Source: Nanobdellota archaeon (GTDB lineage: Archaea; Nanobdellota; Nanobdellia; Woesearchaeales; GW2011-AR9). From it: a DNA stretch of 49,891 nt. The notes beneath the pieces are model-generated. The model saw nothing but the letters and a program-made list of their open reading frames with translations, made no database searches and was not told where the DNA came from. The stretch lies in NCBI GenBank assembly GCA_038044525.1, contig JBBSZV010000025.1, positions 1 through 49,891 of the forward strand, written 5' to 3'. The translations under genes and the position numbers were made by a program. Shown one piece after another: positions 1,315 through 29,471 of the stretch (positions within the stretch are counted from its first letter, which is position 1; each line of letters opens with the position of its first letter).

Positions 1315-2490
1315 GTGATCAAAATAAAAGAATTGTCTGTTAAACTGTCAAAAGTGGAACCGTCATCGACGCTCATGATTTCTGCAAAGGCCAGGGAGCT
1401 GAGAAAAGAAGGGCAGGACGTGATTGATTTAAGCATAGGAGAGCCAGGGCTGGTTCTTAAGAAAGAAATAAAGGATGCGGGGAAAAAAGCCATAGATGAC
1501 AACAAGAATACCTATACGCCGGTCGCGGGAATACCCGAACTTAAGAGAGCGATAATTGAAAAATTAAAACGCGATAACAATTTAGATTATAAGGAAAATG
1601 AGATTGTTATTTCCACCGGAGCAAAACAGTCGCTGTTCAATCTTATTGGCGTGCTGGCAAATCCGGGAGATGAATTCATACTGATAAAACCGTATTGGGT
1701 AAGCTACGCCGACCAGATTAAATATTTTGATGCGGTGCCGGTCATAGCGGAATGCACCAACAGTTTGGGGATAAGATCGGACTGCATAGAACAAAAAATA
1801 ACTGAAAAAACAAAAGCCATCATCTTAAATTCGCCGTGCAACCCCAGCGGCGCGGTGATTGAGGAAGAAGAACTTAAAAAAATATCAGAACTGGCTGTAA
1901 AAAATGACCTTTATGTAATCTCTGATGAGATTTATGAATACCTTATCTACGAAGGAACGCATAAGAGCATAGCAGATTATGGAGAAGATGTAAAAAAAAG
2001 AACAATAATCATCAACGGATGCTCAAAAGCCCACAGCATGACGGGTTTAAGAGTAGGGTATGCGACCGGGCCTTCCAACATAATAAAACTCATGGAAAAT
2101 TTTCAGAGCCAAGTCACTTCCGGCCCGAACTCGGTGTCACAATATATGGCAGTTGAGGCATTAGGATTGACCCGGGATGACTATCGCCATGAGATTAATG
2201 AATTCAAAAACAAAAGGAATTGGGTTATATCAGAACTGGAATCGTGCGGGATAAAAACAGAAGGGGCAAACGGGGCGTTCTACATATTCTTCAAAATTCC
2301 CGGCGATGCCAACAGCGAAGAGTTCTGCAAAAAACTGCTTCATGAAGAAAAATTAGCTCTTGTTCCGGGAATAGCGTTCGGGATGGAAGGATATGTGAGG
2401 ATAAGTTATGCTTCAGACATCAATACTATAAGAAAGGGCTTGGAAAGACTAAAACGATTTTTAAATGCTTGGTGTGCCCATAATAATTGA
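1315..2490 (+). CDS. PLP-dependent aminotransferase class I/II (aspartate aminotransferase-like)
   Basis: 391 aa. Carries the NPxNPSG-type motif (NSPCNPSG) and the SKAHSMTGLRVGY PLP-lysine region. Confidence 0.85.
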   Translation: MIKIKELSVKLSKVEPSSTLMISAKARELRKEGQDVIDLSIGEPGLVLKKEIKDAGKKAIDDNKNTYTPVAGIPELKRAIIEKLKRDNNLDYKENEIVISTGAKQSLFNLIGVLANPGDEFILIKPYWVSYADQIKYFDAVPVIAECTNSLGIRSDCIEQKITEKTKAIILNSPCNPSGAVIEEEELKKISELAVKNDLYVISDEIYEYLIYEGTHKSIADYGEDVKKRTIIINGCSKAHSMTGLRVGYATGPSNIIKLMENFQSQVTSGPNSVSQYMAVEALGLTRDDYRHEINEFKNKRNWVISELESCGIKTEGANGAFYIFFKIPGDANSEEFCKKLLHEEKLALVPGIAFGMEGYVRISYASDINTIRKGLERLKRFLNAWCAHNN

Positions 2491-2493
2491 ACC

Positions 2494-3963
2494 ATGAAAA
2501 CAAAAATAGCAAGAACCATGTCAACACAGCATCCCGATAACGTAGCTATCCCTTCCTTCGCGTCAAACCAAACCTTAACTGGGGACGATGAAGTGCAAGA
2601 AGCATTCTATGTATATTCGTGCCTGGGGATAGACGAGCAATTGTGGGATGTGGAAGGGAAAGAAGTAGATAATTATGTAGTCCATAAGCTCCTTTCAAAA
2701 TATCCGGATTATTTCCGGCAGAACAGATTAGGAGAACATAAATTTCTCACTATCAGAGCGCCGAATCCGGATGTCGAAAAGAACGAAGCTAAAATAATCC
2801 CCGAATTGATGCTCTCCATACCCAGAAACCACGACGTAGCCACGGTATTCTACCAAGAAGATACCAGCCCCATATTTGAGATAGTCATGCCCATGTGCAC
2901 CTCTGAAAAGCCGTTGATAAGAATCCGTGAATTGTACCGGCACTTGGTTAAGAATCTGCCTAACAAAAAAATAGGAGATATGAAATTGAAAGGATGGCTA
3001 GGAAATTTCAAACCGAAGCATATCCGGATAACTCCTCTTTTTGAGACTAAAGAAGAAATATTAAATTCCCATATTTATATAGAAAAATATATCCAATATG
3101 CAAAAATAAAAGATTTTCAGAGAGTATGGTATGCGAGAAGCGATCCGGCAATGAATTACGGCTCCGTAGCAGCGATACTGCTGGTGAAAGTGGCTCTGCA
3201 GAGAATAAGTTCTCTGGAAAAAAAATGTGGGATAAGTATACTGCCCATAATAGGGCTGGGATCAGCTCCATTCAGAGGCAATTTTAAACCTTCTACTGTC
3301 AGGAAAATCCTGGAAGGATACCCGAGTGTGCAAACATTTACCGTCCAATCTGCATTCAAATATGATTACCCTATCAAGCAAGTAATAGAAGCGATAGAAT
3401 ACCTAAACCAGACTGAAAGAGGAAAACCTTTTGAAATTGACGAAGAGATGGCTTTGAAATATATTGATGCTATACACAAAGATTATGCTGATACTATAAA
3501 AGAGATTGCTCCATTAGTTAATGATTTTAGTAAATACATTCCGGGAAGAAGAAAAAGAAAAATGCACATCGGCCTTTTTGGATATTCCAGAAATGCTTCC
3601 GGGATAAAACTCCCGAGAACCATAACTTTCTGCGCAGTGTTATACTCTTTGGGGATATCGCCGGAATTATTCGGGCTTTCGGAACTTACGGAAGAAGACT
3701 TCGCCAACATAAAAACAGGTTACACCAATTTTGAATATGATATGGGGGAAGCACTCCAATATTTCAATGAAAAAAATTTAGACCTGCTTTCACCGAGGAT
3801 GAAAGAAAAAATATCTAAGACTGCAAAAATGTTCAAGTACGAAGTTAACCGGGAACACCAGGAGATCACGACAAAAATAGCTAAGGCATACCGAGATAAT
3901 GATTGTGAAGCCATAAACGAATTAGTCCTGCGTGCCGGTAAAATCAGGGGATTTTTGGGTTGA
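2494..3963 (+). CDS. ppcA: Archaeal-type phosphoenolpyruvate carboxylase
   Basis: 489 aa. N-terminus MSTQHPDN is typical of the short archaeal PepcA family. Confidence 0.85.
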   Translation: MKTKIARTMSTQHPDNVAIPSFASNQTLTGDDEVQEAFYVYSCLGIDEQLWDVEGKEVDNYVVHKLLSKYPDYFRQNRLGEHKFLTIRAPNPDVEKNEAKIIPELMLSIPRNHDVATVFYQEDTSPIFEIVMPMCTSEKPLIRIRELYRHLVKNLPNKKIGDMKLKGWLGNFKPKHIRITPLFETKEEILNSHIYIEKYIQYAKIKDFQRVWYARSDPAMNYGSVAAILLVKVALQRISSLEKKCGISILPIIGLGSAPFRGNFKPSTVRKILEGYPSVQTFTVQSAFKYDYPIKQVIEAIEYLNQTERGKPFEIDEEMALKYIDAIHKDYADTIKEIAPLVNDFSKYIPGRRKRKMHIGLFGYSRNASGIKLPRTITFCAVLYSLGISPELFGLSELTEEDFANIKTGYTNFEYDMGEALQYFNEKNLDLLSPRMKEKISKTAKMFKYEVNREHQEITTKIAKAYRDNDCEAINELVLRAGKIRGFLG

Positions 3964-8721: not shown

Positions 8722-9438
8722 ATGGGATTGGTCCAGATATATGATACTCAGGAAGAAGTGTTGCAACGAGTACGGCAAGTAGTTTATGAATCTAACCTAA
8801 AAACCAGAGAAACACTAGAGAGCCTTACTAAAGCAGCTATGTCTGAGTACAGAGAAAAATCAGGTTTTGATGAACGATGGATCAGGAGGAATGAAGAATT
8901 CAAAAAGAAAAAACCTTGGGCGTCAACTTTTCCGCCAAATATGGTCCACTTGTCAGATGATGAGCAAAAAAATTTCAAGGAACAATATCATGATTTAGGA
9001 AAGGATTTGGAGCTTACTGTATTGGTTCATCTCTCCGCTGTTGGCGATGAATACAACTTTGACGATGTATCAGGCGGTATTGGTATAGGCTTTGTCGGAC
9101 CGTACAAAGATATAAGCTCTATGGCATTAGACATAAAGGACATTTTGCAACAGCTAAAAGGTAAATTCTCTGGAGCAAAACTAACTCCCGCCTTTTATAC
9201 TACTAAAGAAAATAAACCTCTTGTGCCGGAAGAAATAAGTAGTGATGTTGATGGTTGGCTAAACGGTATTGCGCAAGAAATGCAAGAAGATGATGATCTT
9301 CCAGAAGAAGCAAAGACTTCCATTTATGAAGAGCTAAGAGAGTTTGCTTCTTCTAAAGATAGGTATGGAGGACTGACCGAAGCAGAATGCGCAGAATTTG
9401 AAAGATTATTTTGCCAACAAGCCACTAATACCCCTTAA
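8722..9438 (+). CDS. Hypothetical protein
   Basis: 238-aa ORF with no recognisable motif. Confidence 0.4.
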   Translation: MGLVQIYDTQEEVLQRVRQVVYESNLKTRETLESLTKAAMSEYREKSGFDERWIRRNEEFKKKKPWASTFPPNMVHLSDDEQKNFKEQYHDLGKDLELTVLVHLSAVGDEYNFDDVSGGIGIGFVGPYKDISSMALDIKDILQQLKGKFSGAKLTPAFYTTKENKPLVPEEISSDVDGWLNGIAQEMQEDDDLPEEAKTSIYEELREFASSKDRYGGLTEAECAEFERLFCQQATNTP

Positions 9439-9841
9439 TCACTTTCTCTCTCAACAGCGTCGATTTATGCTTCCCTGATTTAAACGGTTTCGCGCGGCAT
9501 ATTTCCGGCTGCAAACCGCGTTCTTTTAACTTCACGACCAATTCTTTCTCGCTGATTTGATGATCGTATCCCAAGAAAATGACATCGGGTTTCTTTTCTT
9601 CAATAATCTTAAAATAGTCTTCAGGATAACCGAGCACCGTTTCGTCGACAATTTTTAATCCTTTTACCAACTCCAGGCGTTCCTTTTCAGAGAAAATAAT
9701 CTCTTTCTTTTGCATCAGTTTAGTTTTATCTAAGGCAATTACCACCATCAGATAATCCCCGTATTTCTTGGCCTGCTGAAAATAGTTAAGATGGCCCAGA
9801 TGCAATAAATCAAAAGTGCCGAAGCACATGACGGTTTTCAT
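9425..9841 (-). CDS. Cytidylyltransferase-like nucleotidyltransferase (RibL FAD synthase / TagD-like)
   Basis: 138 aa. GTFDLLHLGH (HxGH) motif at the N-terminus, typical of the small cytidylyltransferase family. Confidence 0.75.
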   Translation of the reverse strand: MKTVMCFGTFDLLHLGHLNYFQQAKKYGDYLMVVIALDKTKLMQKKEIIFSEKERLELVKGLKIVDETVLGYPEDYFKIIEEKKPDVIFLGYDHQISEKELVVKLKERGLQPEICRAKPFKSGKHKSTLLREKVIKGY

Positions 9842-9937: not shown

Positions 9938-11131
9938 TTGGAAATGAAAAACACTATTAATCTCTCCCCCTGGTATGAAGATGAGAGAATAGTTGAAGAC
10001 TATCTAAAAGAAGCACCCAATAAGAAAGAAATTCATTGGTTTGATCTGCCTAATGGAACACAATTTTTACTAAAACACTTCCCAGATAATTTACATAGAT
10101 TGGGTAAAAGTAATTTTGTTAGTATAGAAAGATTGAAGAAAGCTTGTGGATTAAGTAAAGAAACTAATAACCTTATTATTGGAATAAAAAGAACGATGAA
10201 GGGAAATGATTGTTTAAATGTTAATTTTCCAATAAAATTAGAAAATCATGAGTACACAACTCTTTATTCATTGATGCTTTCTGAAGGATCTACTTCTTCC
10301 GAATTTTCGTTAAACGTTCCAGAACAATTTTTCCATGAGAGGTTCAAAATAAAAATAGGAAATTTAATATCTGAGGATTTTTCTAAAAATATTGCAGTAG
10401 ATTTCCAGAATGGCTTCAAGAGATCTAGAGCTCCTGCTAAAATAAGGCATTTAATTCCTGTAAGTGAACATATCCCCAAGTTTATTCTGCTTAACAAAGA
10501 ACTTGCTAGAGAATATCTTAAAATAGCTTTTGAGGCTGAGGGAAGCCCCATACTAAACAAGAATCAGATAAAAAGATATATTAAACTTTCCAGGTATGTT
10601 GATATTTCAAAATATGTAAATGTAGAACTACCTCCCGATAGAAGAGTTTATACTGGAGAGATTCAAGAAAAATACCCCTTACTCTACGATAAAATCAAGG
10701 AATTTCCCCCGCTTCCACTATTAGGTGAATTTATTCTTCTAAAAAAGCATTTTAGTATTAATAGTAAAATCACTTTAGAAGCAATTAAACAAAATAAAAC
10801 TGCTTTTCGAGCAGGTAAGGTTAGTGCACGTTGGACGTTACTAATCTATGCAGACGACATAAATAGATTCATTGAAGAGATTAATTTTATTTCAAAGAAA
10901 AAAAGAGAAATGTGTGAAGAAATGTTAAAAATTAGAGCAAATAGACGCCAGTATTCAACATTCGAGTTTATTAGAGCAGTTGAAAAAAATGGAATTATAG
11001 CAAGAAAAGATTTCGTAAGCATCATGAAGAAACAAGGCTACAAAAGCCCAAGCTGTTATATTCACCGATTTGAGAAAAAAGGTTTACTAGAAAGAATTGA
11101 GAATGGGAAATATAAATTACTTGTTAATTAA
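9938..11131 (+). CDS. Hypothetical protein with two LAGLIDADG-like helices and a C-terminal winged-helix
   Basis: 397 aa. Two helix-(S/A)EGS motifs (LMLSEGS, AFEAEGS) about 110 aa apart, and a basic wHTH-like C-terminus. Confidence 0.35.
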   Translation: MEMKNTINLSPWYEDERIVEDYLKEAPNKKEIHWFDLPNGTQFLLKHFPDNLHRLGKSNFVSIERLKKACGLSKETNNLIIGIKRTMKGNDCLNVNFPIKLENHEYTTLYSLMLSEGSTSSEFSLNVPEQFFHERFKIKIGNLISEDFSKNIAVDFQNGFKRSRAPAKIRHLIPVSEHIPKFILLNKELAREYLKIAFEAEGSPILNKNQIKRYIKLSRYVDISKYVNVELPPDRRVYTGEIQEKYPLLYDKIKEFPPLPLLGEFILLKKHFSINSKITLEAIKQNKTAFRAGKVSARWTLLIYADDINRFIEEINFISKKKREMCEEMLKIRANRRQYSTFEFIRAVEKNGIIARKDFVSIMKKQGYKSPSCYIHRFEKKGLLERIENGKYKLLVN

Positions 11132-13228
11132 GATAGCTTTTTTTATTATCAATTGGCCTGAATTTTCCGAACTCATTGATTTTCCCGTTTTTATTAATAA
11201 TATTTTTTTCTTAAACAATGGGCAATCTAGAACTACTGTTTCGGCTTCACCGCCTTCAAAAGCTTCATTAATTCCTACTTTTTTATGTAATTTTTTAAGA
11301 TCATCAATCATTTTCTGATCGATTTTCCTTCCTAACCAACCCTTATCCAATCCTTCTGCGGCGACTGAAGTTAAAATAATCTCAAATCCGTTGTCAAGCA
11401 GTTCCTGCATATGCTGATCCTGCGGCTTATGCCATAAGGGGGAAAATATCTTCAGGCCTAATTTATCGCAGATATTTTCGATCCGATCCCGCTGGTATGT
11501 CGAGAATAATGCGCCGGAAACTACACCTTCTATCCGATATTGCTCTTTTGCTTTCAGCAGGGCGGTTTCCAGATCCTCCAGCTCTGCTTCTTTCTCGCCT
11601 TTGGTTTTCTGGATGATGATCGGCAATCCCATCGCTTCTGCCTGCAATTCTACCAGCTCGGTTCCTGCGGTTTGGAACATATACGAATCTGGATTTTCTG
11701 ATCGGATATGGATAAGGCAGGTTAATCCATAATTCTGTTGTTTCATTATGTACGCCGCTGCCGTGGAATCTTTTCCGGAAGAGAATAAAACGCCCAGTTT
11801 TACATTGTGAGAGGGATAAAATGTTTTTAGATAGGCTGATTTTGAAGGAAATTTGTTTTTCTTAGCTAATTTTCCCAGCGCATAATCAAATTTGGAGCCG
11901 TACTGTGCGGCCGTCTTTTTGCGGAAGGCAGATCCTTGCGGAATCCCTTTTTCCAAAGCAATAACCCGCAGGATGTATTTAGTGACCCCTTCTTTGATCT
12001 TGTACTTGCCGGGAATCTTCAAAGCGTAATCTATCAGCTTTAGATCCAAAAATGGAAGGCGCAGCTCCAAGCTATTATCCATGGTGAGCACATCATCCCG
12101 GTATAAGTCGCGTTCATACATTTTTAACAACCCAGACACGCATTCCTGATTGATGTTCGCGGAATTCTTATGCCGCTCATAGCCGGCAAATATCTCTTCG
12201 CTGCCCAAGCCGGAGAAAATAACCTTGCAGCCATCTTCCTTAGCCATCTCACAGGCAACATAGAAAGTCAACGCTACGCCAACTTTTACTACATTAGAAT
12301 CTTCGATCAAAGGGACAATTTTTTGCAGATAGGAAGATATCTCTTCCAATTTAATTTTTTTGACTTTCAATTTCAGCCCTAACTCCCGGGCAACCTTTTG
12401 TGCGGATTCCAGATCGGCAGGGACGGCTTCTGAATCTAATACTGCGGTATAACAAGTGAAATCGCAGCCCCGATCTTTAAAGGATTTGGCCAGATAAGTG
12501 GAGTCTATCCCCCCAGAAAATAAAAGGCCGAATCTCTTGCCGGGAATCCTTTTTTCGACAGCCTGGTCAAGAAGGGCGGCAGTTTTTTCTTTAAGAATAT
12601 CAAATGATTCTGCAGTTTCTGGAAGATAAGAAAAAAATTCCCGATTGATGAATTCTAATCGGTTTTCTTTTAATCCATATTTGATCCTGCTTCTCGGATT
12701 GAGTTCCTGGATGTCGAGAAAACCTAACTTTTCCAGCGCTTTCTTTTCGGAAGCGAAAGCAAAAGCATCGGTGTTATGGACAAACCAGAGCGGTTTTTCT
12801 CCCAGGATGTCTCTGGCCAGATAGAGGGTATTTTCTTTCCAATAAGCAAAAGCGTAAACTCCGTCCAGCTCCTGAAGGTTATCTATCCCAAATTTATCTA
12901 AGAAAGATAAGAGCAGTTCTGCATCGTTTTTGACCTTAAAATTATATTTTCTATTAAGTTCTTCCCAATTGTAAATCTCGCAGTTAGCCGCCAATAAGCC
13001 TTCTTTCTTCAAGGGCTGGGGCACTTGGCTTACTACTGCGTGCAGGGAATGACCGAGAAAATGTTTGCCGGATAAAGAAGTGAATTCATCCAGCTCTTTA
13101 TGATGCTGGATTTCCCTGCTGCCGGCGATGCCGAAACCATCCCGGCCCCGGTTATGAAGCAGAGCTAACGCCGTTTTTACTTTAGCAAACGCGTCCTTTT
13201 GGTTGAAAATCCCGATGATGCCACACAT
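11117..13228 (-). CDS. Asparagine synthetase (glutamine-hydrolysing) fused to a Dph6/MJ0570-like PP-loop ATPase domain
   Basis: 703 aa. N-terminal MCGIIG Ntn glutaminase, central SGGIDS PP-loop (AsnB), then a C-terminal domain with SSGKDS and EGGEAETVVLDCPLF, which is the MJ0570/diphthine-ammonia ligase signature. Confidence 0.8.
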   Translation of the reverse strand: MCGIIGIFNQKDAFAKVKTALALLHNRGRDGFGIAGSREIQHHKELDEFTSLSGKHFLGHSLHAVVSQVPQPLKKEGLLAANCEIYNWEELNRKYNFKVKNDAELLLSFLDKFGIDNLQELDGVYAFAYWKENTLYLARDILGEKPLWFVHNTDAFAFASEKKALEKLGFLDIQELNPRSRIKYGLKENRLEFINREFFSYLPETAESFDILKEKTAALLDQAVEKRIPGKRFGLLFSGGIDSTYLAKSFKDRGCDFTCYTAVLDSEAVPADLESAQKVARELGLKLKVKKIKLEEISSYLQKIVPLIEDSNVVKVGVALTFYVACEMAKEDGCKVIFSGLGSEEIFAGYERHKNSANINQECVSGLLKMYERDLYRDDVLTMDNSLELRLPFLDLKLIDYALKIPGKYKIKEGVTKYILRVIALEKGIPQGSAFRKKTAAQYGSKFDYALGKLAKKNKFPSKSAYLKTFYPSHNVKLGVLFSSGKDSTAAAYIMKQQNYGLTCLIHIRSENPDSYMFQTAGTELVELQAEAMGLPIIIQKTKGEKEAELEDLETALLKAKEQYRIEGVVSGALFSTYQRDRIENICDKLGLKIFSPLWHKPQDQHMQELLDNGFEIILTSVAAEGLDKGWLGRKIDQKMIDDLKKLHKKVGINEAFEGGEAETVVLDCPLFKKKILLIKTGKSMSSENSGQLIIKKAILINK

Positions 13229-13251: not shown

Positions 13252-14346
13252 TTATAAAAGTTTATGGGGATTAGGGAAGGTTCTTCTACCTAACTCTTTT
13301 GTTATCCATTCTTCCTGCTTTTGGCAAATGGTGTAGGAATTGCCCAGTAAGGCATAACCTTTCCAACCGTTAAAAATATCAAATACTTGCTGCACAGAGA
13401 CTTTTTCTGATCCATAATCTTCAAAAAGCAAAATCATCTTTCTTCGGAAGGTGCGTAGATTGCGTTTCCTAATTAATTTATGATGATAAAAAATGCGGAA
13501 GCCAAGAAGATTTATCCCGCTACTCAAGGGAATTATTTTACACTTATCTGAATGCAGCTCAACCCTGAGAGAAGATAAAAATTCTTTTATTTTAGGTTCA
13601 TATTCCCGAAGAGCTGTTTTTGATTGATGAAAAACAACAAAGTCATCAACATAGCGAAGATAATATTTTGCTTTCAATTCATGCTTGACAAAATGATCTA
13701 ACTCATGAAGGTAAATGTTGGCAAAGAACTGGCTGGTCCAGTTGCCTAGAGGCATGCCCTTTCCAGAAACACCAGAATTGTAGTTGTTGAGAATTGCAGT
13801 AATCAGCCATAATACCTCTTGGTCTTTAATCCTCTTGCTGATAATGCCTATTAACAACTTATGATCAACATTATCAAAGTAACGCTTAATATCGCACTTT
13901 AAAGCATAACCTTTGACTTGGTTGTTGTTTTTAGCTTCTTTGACCAATCTTCCATTTCGGGTTACTTTTCGGATAAAAATAGCTGCTCGCTTCAGCGCTA
14001 AAAATGTTCCCTTGCCTCTTCTGCTGGCGTGACTATCGTAAATGAATCTCGGCTCAAAGATAGGCTGCAAGATATTAACTAAAGCATGATGAACGATCCG
14101 ATCCCGGAATTGGCTGACGCAGATACGCCGCGTTTTAGGGTCGCGAAGAATAAAAATCTTCAGGGGTTGGGGTTGATAGGTTTTATTGCACAATTCATGA
14201 TGCAGTTTCCAAAGATGATACTGCCAATGCTCAGCAAATTCAGCTACGGAAGGCGGGGATAATTTTCCTTTTTTTGCTTTTTGGTATGCTATTTGCAAAT
14301 TATCAAAAGAACAAAGCTTTTGGTATAATTTCTGGTATGTTTTCAT
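13252..14346 (-). CDS. Diversity-generating retroelement reverse transcriptase
   Basis: Start trimmed to ATG at 14344-14346 (MKTYQ...). Carries the RT motif 5 YxDD (YLRYVDDFVVF), the DGR-specific motif 4 LGNWTSQ (SQ in place of QG), and an N-terminal SFDNLQIAYQKAKKGK. It lies directly downstream of the TR. Confidence 0.8.
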   Translation of the reverse strand: MKTYQKLYQKLCSFDNLQIAYQKAKKGKLSPPSVAEFAEHWQYHLWKLHHELCNKTYQPQPLKIFILRDPKTRRICVSQFRDRIVHHALVNILQPIFEPRFIYDSHASRRGKGTFLALKRAAIFIRKVTRNGRLVKEAKNNNQVKGYALKCDIKRYFDNVDHKLLIGIISKRIKDQEVLWLITAILNNYNSGVSGKGMPLGNWTSQFFANIYLHELDHFVKHELKAKYYLRYVDDFVVFHQSKTALREYEPKIKEFLSSLRVELHSDKCKIIPLSSGINLLGFRIFYHHKLIRKRNLRTFRRKMILLFEDYGSEKVSVQQVFDIFNGWKGYALLGNSYTICQKQEEWITKELGRRTFPNPHKLL

Positions 14347-14383
14347 GCCTGAAAAAATCCTCAAAATGCTAAGGCAGTCTATT

Positions 14384-14460
14384 CCGCGAGAAGCCCTGTT
14401 GTTGTAGTTGCAGCTGTTGACATTGAACCTGTTGTTGAAGTTGCCACGACCAGCAGGCAG
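14384..14460 (-). repeat. DGR template repeat (TR)
   Basis: 77 bp matching 14723-14799. 7 of 8 mismatches fall at TR adenines on the coding (minus) strand. In the target frame it encodes seven AAC and one AAT Asn codons. Confidence 0.7.
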
Positions 14461-14691
14461 CTCAGTAGCCCCGCCACCTTTCGTTTTCACTGCTGCTCCA
14501 GTCGTTCATCCAAAAGATTACTTGCTGTTGCAGCTGTATTTTATAGCAATGTTGACTAAAAGCCAAGCTCTTGCCGTGATGGCAGGACGTGTAGTCCACC
14601 CTCTCACCTAGCCGCAGTGTGCTGCGGTATGGGGCATTTTGAGGACAACAAACAGGGAAATGATCATTATAAAAAACTTATCGCACATGGT

Positions 14692-15384
14692 TCATTTTTT
14701 CGCGCGCGACGACGGGACTACCCCGCGAGAAGCCCTGTTGTTGTAGTTGTAGCTGCCGACATAGAACCTGCTGCCGAAGCTGCCACGACCAGCAGGCAGA
14801 ATCTGTCCGTCAGCAGGCAAGTATAACTGCGCTCGTTTACCGTCTTCACACATTGCCTGCGGCAGCTGCGCAAACTTCCGCGTGTACAAAAATTCAACAA
14901 GATCATTGCCAAACTGGTTCAAATCGACCAATTTAGTTGATGGAATGCCGGCGATAGAAAAATCTCTCTTACTTTCAAACGTGAAATTTTCCATCACATA
15001 AGTAGAACCATTCCACACCAATCCTTCTGGATCGGTGTAAATTGTAAGTTTATCTTTGTTTCTTTCCATCGCCGCACTCAGCCATTCGCCATAGCTGTTC
15101 AGCATGTCCTCAGCTATTGATTTCTGTTCAGCAGTTACTTTGTTTTCAAGATTGGCGATCAGCAGGCCGAACACTTCCTGCGGACGAGGATGTCTGGTTT
15201 GACCGCGGCTTCTCAAACTGGCCAGGCTAGCGTCGTAGGTCAAAAGTTTCTTATTGCTGCCTTCGTAGGTGGCTTTCGCTTCAAACTTCACATCCTGAAG
15301 CACCAAATAATCGTCTAAGCTATAAGGTGGTTTGATTATCGGCTCCTTTTTCTCTTTCCAGCCAAGACTAAAATCTACCGGCAT
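14692..15384 (-). CDS. DGR variable (target) protein with C-terminal VR
   Basis: 230 aa. The last ~35 aa are encoded by the VR (LPAGRGSFGSRFYVGSYNYNNRASRG). No signal peptide. The ATG lies immediately after the TAA stop of the upstream gene, in the same frame. Confidence 0.7.
   Translation of the reverse strand: MPVDFSLGWKEKKEPIIKPPYSLDDYLVLQDVKFEAKATYEGSNKKLLTYDASLASLRSRGQTRHPRPQEVFGLLIANLENKVTAEQKSIAEDMLNSYGEWLSAAMERNKDKLTIYTDPEGLVWNGSTYVMENFTFESKRDFSIAGIPSTKLVDLNQFGNDLVEFLYTRKFAQLPQAMCEDGKRAQLYLPADGQILPAGRGSFGSRFYVGSYNYNNRASRGVVPSSRAKK
14723..14799 (-). repeat. DGR variable repeat (VR)
   Basis: Counterpart of the TR. TR AAC codons read as AGC/GGC and TR AAT as TAT in the VR. GC-rich IMH-like sequence at 14701-14722, which is absent from the corresponding TR flank. 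Confidence 0.7.
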
Positions 15385-27713: not shown

Positions 27714-29471
27714 TCATTTCTTCCATTCTCCGTGAAAACTTTGCAAGTTCTGCCGAGCCCGCCGGTATGTCTCAGGATCATAACTTTCAAGAATCTTTCT
27801 TGCTTCTTCTATTACCGGTTCTTTAAACTGCACTTTAGGAAGAAACTTATCTTGGCCGTCAATAGTGATGGCCCGCGGAATTTCTACCTGATAAAAATCT
27901 CCCAATAATCCCCGCGGCCAGATCATCATGCAGCCTTCTCTGCCGGCATTGAGAAATTCCAGCAAAACCTTAGCCTCATCAATAAACCCAGCATCAGCAC
28001 ATTGCTGCAGCATCGCATATTTTTTCTCTTCTTCAACAGAAAGAGTATCTGCCGGAAATATTTTTGCTGCAGTGATCAGCCAGCAATCATACGGCTGCAG
28101 AATCTGCACCTCTTCATGCAAACTGCCAACTTCGCCCCCTAATAAGGTATGCGCTTCCAAAATTTGCTCATCGTTATGGGCTATCACCAGAGTGCGGCGA
28201 TAATCTTCTCTCCAGCCCGGCGACCAGGTTCCGAAGGAATAATAATCTGCTTCATCGGTAAGTTTAAGCATGAGTTTGCCGGCATTTAAAGAATAGATCT
28301 CCTTGCTGGTGCTGGAAATTATTCGGTCACCGCCAAAACCATGATGCTGAAGGCTATTTTCTCTATCTCGTTTTCCATATTTCATGACCATTCCTGCTGC
28401 CATTTCTATCACTGCATCTATTTCTGGAGCAGCTTTTCCTTTATTTATGCCCTCCAGATCCCTGCGCAGGACTTTGTCCAAGGGCATCACTAATTCTAAA
28501 GATCTGCCAACAGCATAGTCAAAATCTTCCTTAAATTTGGCATGGGCTTCTTCAGAACTGAGATTCACATAGCTTTTTCGTTCCAAAGAAAGGCAGTTCA
28601 GCAGCAGTTCCTTAAAGCGTACCGGAACCGGTTCTATTTCTTGTTCCAGCTTTGCATCATGCTCTTCGGGAGAGATGCTAACCAGCCTCAGTTCATCTTC
28701 TTCCAGGGCAATGTAAATTTTTTCATCTCTAATTTCTAAAGGCGTTCCGTCATCAACAATATTCACTTTATATCGAAACGGCGGTTTTCCTACCAAGGCA
28801 TAAAATAATGTTGCGCCTAAAGCATAAAATTCCGTAGCTATAGTCGCTCTATTTGGAAGACCCTGTAAAAGTGTATTAACTAAATCGGGATGAGTATAGC
28901 CCGTAGCTCCTCTGGTGGGCATAAGTTTCAGTTCTATATCATTCACTAACGAAGCAGTTTGAAAATCAGCCACTTTCACTAAATCTGTCTGTCGACCGAT
29001 CAGGATATTAGAAGGTTTAAGATCGCGGTGCAAGATATCTCCCCCTGCATGAAGATAGCGCAGCGCATCAGTTACTTGGGAAAAAACAATCTTTAAAAAA
29101 TCCTGATTTAGGATCGGCCCTTGCATCCTAACTTTCTCTTCTAAAGAAATAGCATCGAAATGCTCTTCAATGATGATTTTTCTCTTTTCATCCTGAAGCA
29201 GGTCATATATTTGGACAATATTAGGGTGGTTAATGATATTAAGTAATTCAATTTCTCTTTCACTTAATCTATCTTTTGTTTTATTTATTTTATGTTGAAC
29301 AGAATCACCACCATTAGGGCGCTCCCATTTTGCTACAAATCTTCGTTTCAGTTCCCCTTTATGGCGGACTACTTCATAGGCTACCCGAAAGTAACCTTCT
29401 CCGATTTTTCGCCGCAAGGCATAATTATTCCGGTTCAATAGCGCAATCAGTTCTAAATCAAAATCTGCCAT
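27714..29471 (-). CDS. Hanks-type Ser/Thr protein kinase with ~300-aa C-terminal domain of unknown function
   Basis: 585 aa. Glycine loop IGEGYFRVAY, VAK lysine, catalytic loop HRDLKPSNILI, and DFQ in place of DFG. Confidence 0.8.
   Translation of the reverse strand: MADFDLELIALLNRNNYALRRKIGEGYFRVAYEVVRHKGELKRRFVAKWERPNGGDSVQHKINKTKDRLSEREIELLNIINHPNIVQIYDLLQDEKRKIIIEEHFDAISLEEKVRMQGPILNQDFLKIVFSQVTDALRYLHAGGDILHRDLKPSNILIGRQTDLVKVADFQTASLVNDIELKLMPTRGATGYTHPDLVNTLLQGLPNRATIATEFYALGATLFYALVGKPPFRYKVNIVDDGTPLEIRDEKIYIALEEDELRLVSISPEEHDAKLEQEIEPVPVRFKELLLNCLSLERKSYVNLSSEEAHAKFKEDFDYAVGRSLELVMPLDKVLRRDLEGINKGKAAPEIDAVIEMAAGMVMKYGKRDRENSLQHHGFGGDRIISSTSKEIYSLNAGKLMLKLTDEADYYSFGTWSPGWREDYRRTLVIAHNDEQILEAHTLLGGEVGSLHEEVQILQPYDCWLITAAKIFPADTLSVEEEKKYAMLQQCADAGFIDEAKVLLEFLNAGREGCMMIWPRGLLGDFYQVEIPRAITIDGQDKFLPKVQFKEPVIEEARKILESYDPETYRRARQNLQSFHGEWKK

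Follow-up and report, generated by a model that had tools for sequence, protein, structure and literature searches.

Elongation factor 2 (EF-2) carries a conserved modification, diphthamide, which is completed by diphthine--ammonia ligase (Dph6). This enzyme adenylates the carboxylate of diphthine on EF-2 and amidates it to diphthamide. To our knowledge, the source of the ammonia for this last step has never been tested in archaea. The standalone archaeal enzymes PF0828 (3rjz/3rk0/3rk1) and PH1257 (2d13) are single-domain proteins of about 225 amino acids (aa) and have no glutaminase. Eukaryotic Dph6 (yeast YLR143W) is fused to extra domains proposed as ammonia suppliers. A further arrangement was reported in 2012 by de Crécy-Lagard et al. 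(Biol Direct 7:32; PMC3541065), in which a COG0367/AsnB module lies N-terminal to the Dph6 domain, DUF71, in Methanohalophilus mahii, Methanosalsum zhilinae, and "Ca. Nanosalinarum J07AB56." The class II glutamine amidotransferase (GAT-II) domain was proposed to provide NH3 to DUF71 and also to the Asn_synthase domain. A reviewer wanted to know which of the two PP-loop domains consumes the ammonia and what reaction the AsnB-like one carries out; the question was left open, and the active site of the AsnB-like domain was not analyzed in that paper (PMC3541065). The gene described here is a member of this known AsnB-DUF71 (Dph6) fusion family, located on a 49,891-nucleotide (nt) stretch of DNA (contig JBBSZV010000025.1, referred to in its entirety as the window). 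It has the same three-domain order and the same proposed glutamine-ammonia role as the published examples, but this copy comes from a Woesearchaeota-type DPANN archaeon. The new point concerns the middle of the protein. Judged by its residues, the AsnB-like domain is a distinct subfamily, and it is probably not a normal asparagine synthetase.

The gene starts with ATG and encodes a 703-aa protein in which GAT-II, Asn_synthase PP-loop, and DUF71 domains follow one another in one polypeptide. Pfam matches GATase_7 at aa 70-166 (1.2e-20), Asn_synthase from aa 217 (4.4e-43), and Diphthami_syn_2 (PF01902) at aa 477-698 (E = 1.5e-66). A single 703-aa open reading frame (ORF) at 11117-13228 had been proposed in the original prediction, which gave no strand. 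The ORF is indeed there, on the minus strand, and the four motifs quoted with it (MCGIIG, SGGIDS, SSGKDS, and EGGEAET) are all found at verified positions. From the N to the C terminus, the features are as follows.

11117-13228, minus strand: whole gene for the 703-aa fusion of a glutaminase, an AsnB-like PP-loop domain, and Dph6, with the stop codon at 11117-11119 (ORF list, Pfam, NCBIfam, and an identical protein in two independent assemblies)
12644-13228, minus strand: class II (N-terminal nucleophile, Ntn) glutaminase domain, aa 1-195 (GATase_7/GATase_6 matches)
13211-13228, minus strand: MCGIIG motif, aa 1-6 (checked by translation)
11825-12595, minus strand: AsnB-like PP-loop (adenylating) domain of a non-canonical subfamily, aa 212-468 (Asn_synthase match, profile, and fold)
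12500-12517, minus strand: first PP-loop, SGGIDS, aa 238-243 (checked by translation; near-invariant in 130 family representatives)
12278-12292, minus strand: VVKVG, aa 313-317, at the place of the aspartate/ATP-binding Thr-Thr-x-Arg segment of AsnB (alignment to "DVTTIRAS" of 1ct9 and residue counts)
12194-12214, minus strand: SGLGSEE, aa 339-345, with Leu341 where asparagine synthetases have their catalytic Glu (aligned with 6gq3 and 1ct9)
12092-12112, minus strand: RDLYRDD, aa 373-379, aligning with D400-D405 of human ASNS (alignment)
11798-11824, minus strand: linker TFYPSHNVK, aa 469-477, short and ordered, between the AsnB-like and Dph6 domains (predicted local distance difference test score, pLDDT, 93-95)
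11129-11797, minus strand: Dph6 (diphthine--ammonia ligase) domain, aa 478-700 (TIGR03679, alignments to PH1257/PF0828, and fold)
11765-11782, minus strand: second PP-loop, SSGKDS, aa 483-488 (checked by translation)
11237-11257, minus strand: EGGEAET motif, aa 658-664 (checked by translation)

Is the middle domain an asparagine synthetase? The fusion protein shares with E. coli AsnB (1ct9) and human ASNS (6gq3, 8sue) an Ntn glutaminase with an N-terminal Cys, the SGGxDS motif, the Ser-Gly pair, Lys449, tunnel residues, and the fold. The family profile of the middle domain matches AsnB (1ct9) first (2.5e-44), followed by human ASNS, carbapenam synthetase, and beta-lactam synthetase, and its predicted fold compares with AsnB/ASNS at a TM score of about 0.8. 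In 69 diverse fusions and 130 family representatives, the PP-loop SGGxDS, the AMP-anchoring S339-G340, the equivalents of Asp384 and Arg387 (D374 and R377), and K438 (the essential Lys449/Lys466 of the known enzymes) are near-invariant. The acidic pocket residues E344/E345 are kept, and so are most of the hydrophobic residues that line the AsnB-type tunnel. In NCBIfam, the score for TIGR01536 (asn_synth_AEB) is 270.7, barely above the cut-off of 267.1, and that for PRK09431 (AsnB) is 202.8, below the cut-off of 499.

The differences from AsnB and ASNS are 3-fold. (i) The catalytic Glu of "SGEGSDE" (E348 in E. coli by position count in 1ct9, E364 in human) is replaced by Leu341. This position is Leu in all 118 close homologues; of the 130 representatives, 124 have one of the eight most frequent residues there (L, I, V, T, M, S, N, or A), and Glu is not among these eight. 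In human ASNS, E364 is conserved and sits where the ammonia tunnel reaches the synthetase site, and neither the E364A nor the E364Q variant is active. (ii) Thr-Thr-x-Arg is replaced by Val-Lys-x-Gly, with Lys315 conserved in the family. In AsnB, the TTxR segment and the C-terminal Cys523 region are implicated in aspartate/ATP binding (PMC5775275). (iii) The domain stops about 30 residues past K438, the match to 1ct9 ending at residue 451 of 553, so that about 100 residues at the C terminus of AsnB, among them the aspartate-site region around Cys523, have no counterpart. Because the catalytic Glu, the TTxR segment, and the C-terminal region have all been lost, the middle domain is probably no canonical asparagine synthetase. 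The "glutamine-dependent asparagine synthetase" of the original prediction was right as to the intact glutaminase and the AsnB-like PP-loop, but the name does not fit a domain without these three features.

Could the domain nevertheless act on a small molecule? One alternative holds that the chain carries two independent enzymes. Despite the Leu, the glutaminase and the AsnB-like domain would together make a functional glutamine-dependent asparagine synthetase or some comparable amidotransferase for small molecules; Dph6 would use free ammonia, and the fusion would serve only co-expression. This is what the near-invariance of the first PP-loop, S339/G340, D374, R377, and K438, the retention of E344/E345, and a TIGR01536 score just over the cut-off would lead one to expect, and the 2012 paper allowed for ammonia delivery to both synthetase domains (PMC3541065). 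The same alternative has to contend with a position that is never the conserved Glu, with the inactivity of human E364A/Q, and with the absence of both TTxR and the Cys523 region. We consider it unlikely, though a serious contender; evidence from the fusion itself is taken up below.

Loss of the Glu has precedents among enzymes with the AsnB fold. Beta-lactam synthetase and carbapenam synthetase, both of which match the predicted model and the family profile, likewise have the Glu348 position replaced, in the case of CarA by Tyr in the aligned "TGYGSD." These enzymes have a dead glutaminase and make lactam rings, whereas here the glutaminase is intact and the residue is a non-catalytic Leu. 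That carbapenam synthetase, with its Tyr, does other chemistry is one argument for a second alternative, in which the AsnB-like domain would be an active amidotransferase for another, probably bulky carboxylate. The substrate might be diphthine-EF2, handled with Dph6, or another translation component, with both PP-loop domains acting on the same macromolecule. The adenylation machinery is conserved, but other residues stand in for those specific to aspartate, and Lys315 has emerged as a new invariant; the missing C-terminal 100 or so residues may leave the cleft more open; and the AsnB-like domain stays paired with Dph6 in proteins that have no glutaminase. A reviewer of the 2012 paper also raised the need for an additional "ligase" partner (PMC3541065). 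Standalone Dph6, however, is considered sufficient in other archaea, the genes conserved next to the fusion (described below) are not those of diphthamide synthesis, and the proposal is speculation from residue patterns. Moreover, we know of no second amidation in archaeal diphthamide synthesis. Overall, this second alternative seems quite improbable.

The assignment of the C-terminal domain is more straightforward. It scores 269.3 bits against TIGR03679 (Dph6_archaeal; cut-off, 197.3), with model positions 2-218 of 218 covered. Its identity to PH1257 (2.4e-55) and PF0828 (2.3e-52) is about 40%, and in the predicted structure it superposes on both with a TM score of 0.95 and a root mean square deviation of 1.2-1.4 Å. 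With them it shares the SGGKDS-type PP-loop, the EGGEFET-type motif, and nine residues of the EF-2/diphthine site. In PF0828 these nine (S44, Y45, E78, Y103, Q104, A149, E183, E186, and E188) were flagged as Dph6 specific, lie at the modelled EF-2 interface, and separate Dph6 orthologues from the B12-salvage subfamily of DUF71 (PMC3541065). All nine are kept here by alignment to 3rjz, as S515, Y516, E549, Y578, Q579, A624, E658, E661, and E663. Most of these positions are invariant or near-invariant in the 69 fusions, and G485, K486, D487, E658, E661, and E663 are invariant. On this evidence the domain is an orthologue of archaeal diphthine--ammonia ligase, and the Dph6/MJ0570-type domain recognized in the original prediction is borne out by both PF01902 and TIGR03679. 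It differs from PF0828 and PH1257 in forming the C-terminal third of a longer chain, and from yeast YLR143W in the nature and side of its partners, which in yeast are unrelated RidA/YjgF-like domains on the C-terminal side and here are N-terminal.

At the protein's opposite end, the glutaminase looks active, since it holds every catalytic residue of the class II enzymes. The catalytic Cys2 directly follows the start Met, and Arg27, Asn82, Glu84, and Asp102 are kept, with Cys83 at the Gly75 position. Residues of the R27/N82/E84/D102 type match the glutamine-site residues given for AsnB enzymes (PMC5775275). Met1-Cys2 is invariant in the 69 fusions, where R27, D30, N82, E84, and D102 each reach 90% conservation or more, and Cys2 is present in 118 of 118 close homologues.

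How freely do the three domains come and go? Searched exhaustively with HMMER, 1.84 billion representatives yielded 876 matches at E <= 1e-30, the top 150 of which were classified by architecture. They include three-domain fusions, AsnB-like domains fused to Dph6 without a glutaminase, and standalone glutaminase plus AsnB-like proteins; the class counts are approximate, as some apparent standalone forms are truncations at contig ends (e.g., P0154). The AsnB-like and Dph6 domains thus remain fused even when the glutaminase is absent. One example, P0164, has its upstream neighbor on the opposite strand and is therefore not a split gene. In other members, scattered through the set, decay has affected Cys1, the Dph6 motifs, or the first PP-loop. 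P0191 has Asp changed to Asn in its middle PP-loop and has lost the Lys449 region, with Cys1 and the Dph6 motifs retained, and in P0163 the first PP-loop is replaced by LGGGVES. Together with P0148 and P0174, described below, these natural "knock-out" variants could reveal which domains depend on each other. A neighbor-joining tree of the middle domain is poorly resolved, but the three-domain form occurs throughout it with the other forms nested inside, which suggests that those arose by later loss or fission.

Do the domains work together? The whole chain was modelled by AlphaFold2 from the 69-sequence alignment with a mean pLDDT of 94.3 and a predicted TM score of 0.90. Given that score and the ordered linker, the prediction is of three domains packed into one compact unit. 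A scan for group-specific conservation compared 48 glutaminase-containing fusions with 16 glutaminase-less sequences. A single position, Tyr376 of RDLYRDD, is conserved with the glutaminase and lost without it, and the aligned D400-D405 segment of human ASNS lines the end of the ammonia tunnel. This supports a coupling of the glutaminase to the middle domain, as in AsnB; on any onward transfer to Dph6, the comparison is silent.

The best explanation, which we judge to have about an even chance of being correct, is that the protein is a glutamine-using diphthamide synthetase with a diverged AsnB module in its middle, rather than a conventional asparagine synthetase. Glutamine would be hydrolyzed at Cys2, and the ammonia would pass through the AsnB-type tunnel into the middle domain. 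From there it would be used by the tightly packed Dph6 domain for the amidation of diphthine. The middle domain would act either as an ammonia relay under ATP control or would also carry out an amidation of its own. The suggestion in the original prediction that diphthine amidation draws its ammonia from glutamine is thus plausible and partly supported, and it matches the hypothesis already published for fusions of this kind (PMC3541065). The bolder proposal, that the AsnB-like module is no asparagine synthetase but a dedicated partner of Dph6, be it an ATP-gated ammonia relay or a second EF-2-amidating site, falls somewhat short of an even chance. A glutamine-using diphthamide synthetase also gains support from DPANN biology. 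Studies of these archaea list "asparagine synthase" among the very few amino acid genes present and expressed, and genomes without nearly all amino acid biosynthesis still keep and express an "AsnB." This would make sense if the fusion served translation and not asparagine supply.

Several observations weigh against a diphthamide synthetase of this kind. (i) No Dph6 position tracks the presence of the glutaminase in the comparison of 48 with 16 sequences, although this is a weak negative. (ii) The near-invariance of the middle-domain PP-loop and Lys438 suggests that this domain is itself an active adenylating enzyme, which could use up the ammonia. (iii) Standalone archaeal Dph6 proteins carry no glutaminase. 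(iv) The standalone glutaminase plus AsnB-like members have true stops and archaeal housekeeping neighbors, with no adjacent dph6. (v) In P0148 and P0174, Cys1 is missing and the Dph6 motifs have decayed, with the middle-domain PP-loop retained. (vi) At 1315-3963 on the plus strand of the window, a class I/II aminotransferase gene is followed immediately by one for an archaeal-type phosphoenolpyruvate (PEP) carboxylase (PEPcase_2, 3.9e-170). The two could form a route from PEP through oxaloacetate to aspartate that might feed a real asparagine synthetase, and this bears on the need of the cell for one.

For the view that two independent enzymes share the chain, the standalone glutaminase plus AsnB-like members, the mapping of the glutaminase coupling to the AsnB-like domain only, and the possible aspartate supply from the aminotransferase and PEP carboxylase all count in favor. 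Co-expression alone, however, accounts neither for a fusion that persists over 32% to 100% identity, has a short linker of fixed length, and is modelled with confident packing, nor for the AsnB-like plus Dph6 fusions without a glutaminase.

A more trivial possibility is that an assembly or frameshift error joined separate asnB and dph6 genes. The original prediction had suggested looking for a missed frameshift or stop between the domains and surveying the distribution of the fusion, and both lines of inquiry favor a single gene. The reading frame is unbroken through both domain junctions, and the identical 703-aa protein, with the same neighbor genes, occurs in two other groundwater metagenomes that were assembled independently. 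Among 5.8 billion proteins searched, at least 120 clusters match at 63-100% identity; almost every one is full-length, and two are labelled partial. All carry Asn_synthase plus PF01902, and several, from Woesearchaeota or Nanoarchaeota, are named "diphthine--ammonia ligase." In a genome scan with a pattern for the AsnB-like domain, the best 80 of 259 loci, all from close DPANN relatives, were examined. The single-frame three-domain fusion is present in nearly all of these 80 species-representative genomes, all of DPANN type; the exceptions are mostly truncations at contig ends, and one locus (L050) appears split. The three-domain form spans 32% to 100% identity, and the motif-to-motif spacing across the linker comes to 43 residues in 107 of the 118 close homologues. 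Within the 49.9-kb window, neither synthetase domain has a second copy. Two independent assemblies, 118 full-length close homologues with a conserved linker, and a single-frame fusion in nearly all of 80 genomes are far beyond chance, so that a frameshift or chimera can be ruled out with near certainty.

Two observations from these loci deserve mention on their own. In one Nanoarchaeota genome, a second, shorter Dph6 paralogue (L052:4719-5339, plus strand; 207 aa, 146 bits) lies directly downstream of the fusion. Many loci (L002, L004, L005, L007, and others) come from third-party metagenome-assembled genomes in ENA labelled "uncultured Methanosarcinales archaeon," but they are 80-87% identical to Woesearchaeota/Nanoarchaeota genes, and the taxonomic label of those bins therefore looks unreliable.

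Although the original prediction treated the architecture as unfamiliar, both it and the glutamine-ammonia hypothesis have been known since 2012 (PMC3541065), and the fusion is routinely annotated in DPANN genomes, NCBI naming it diphthine--ammonia ligase. We found no later description or test of the fusion in the literature after 2012, and searches of solved structures by sequence and by fold found none with the whole three-domain architecture.

What surrounds the gene? Across the 80 loci, the conserved neighbors are a DRG-type GTPase gene upstream and a cytidylyltransferase-like gene downstream, each at about a quarter to a third of loci; no linkage to dph2, dph5, or the EF-2 gene was found at these loci, and the conserved neighbors give no hint of a substrate, which is a further point against the second alternative above. 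In many related genomes the cytidylyltransferase-like gene directly follows the fusion. In the window the two are parted by an ORF that looks like an insertion and that appears as a 395-aa gene call in both independent assemblies. The features flanking the fusion are as follows.

9425-9841, minus strand: cytidylyltransferase-like gene, parted from the fusion gene by the inserted 397-aa ORF
9938-11131, plus strand: 397-aa ORF without a Pfam match, between the fusion and cytidylyltransferase-like genes, overlapping the 3' end of the fusion by 15 nt
13252-15384, minus strand: diversity-generating retroelement (DGR) directly upstream of the fusion gene (RVT_1 match plus repeat pair)
13252-14490, minus strand: reverse transcriptase gene of the DGR
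14379-14460, minus strand: template repeat of the DGR
14718-14799, minus strand: variable repeat of the DGR
14692-15384, minus strand: target ORF of the DGR

The template and variable repeats of the DGR are 82 nt long and 88% identical, and 9 of their 10 mismatches fall on coding-strand adenines of the template. The variable repeat codes for the C terminus of a 230-aa protein without a Pfam match. Downstream of the DGR region, at 18719-22163 and 27714-29471 on the minus strand and among several ORFs without a family match, are genes for a CDC48-like double AAA+ ATPase, a protein with a Fic domain, and a Ser/Thr protein kinase of eukaryote type. A 753-aa protein with the Major Vault Protein shoulder (6e-29) and Vault_3 repeats, unusual for an archaeal genome, is encoded at 23587-25848 on the minus strand.

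Overall, the fusion family, being abundant in DPANN archaea, offers a natural system in which to test the ammonia source of archaeal diphthamide. If the AsnB-like module indeed serves Dph6 as a dedicated partner, many DPANN archaea would need glutamine to form diphthamide, and the lone DPANN "AsnB" of metabolic reconstructions would be a translation factor-modifying enzyme, not an amino acid biosynthesis gene. Since residues required to make asparagine are missing from the "asparagine synthase" half, reduced archaeal genomes may be credited with more biosynthetic capacity than they have when "asnB" is assigned to them automatically.

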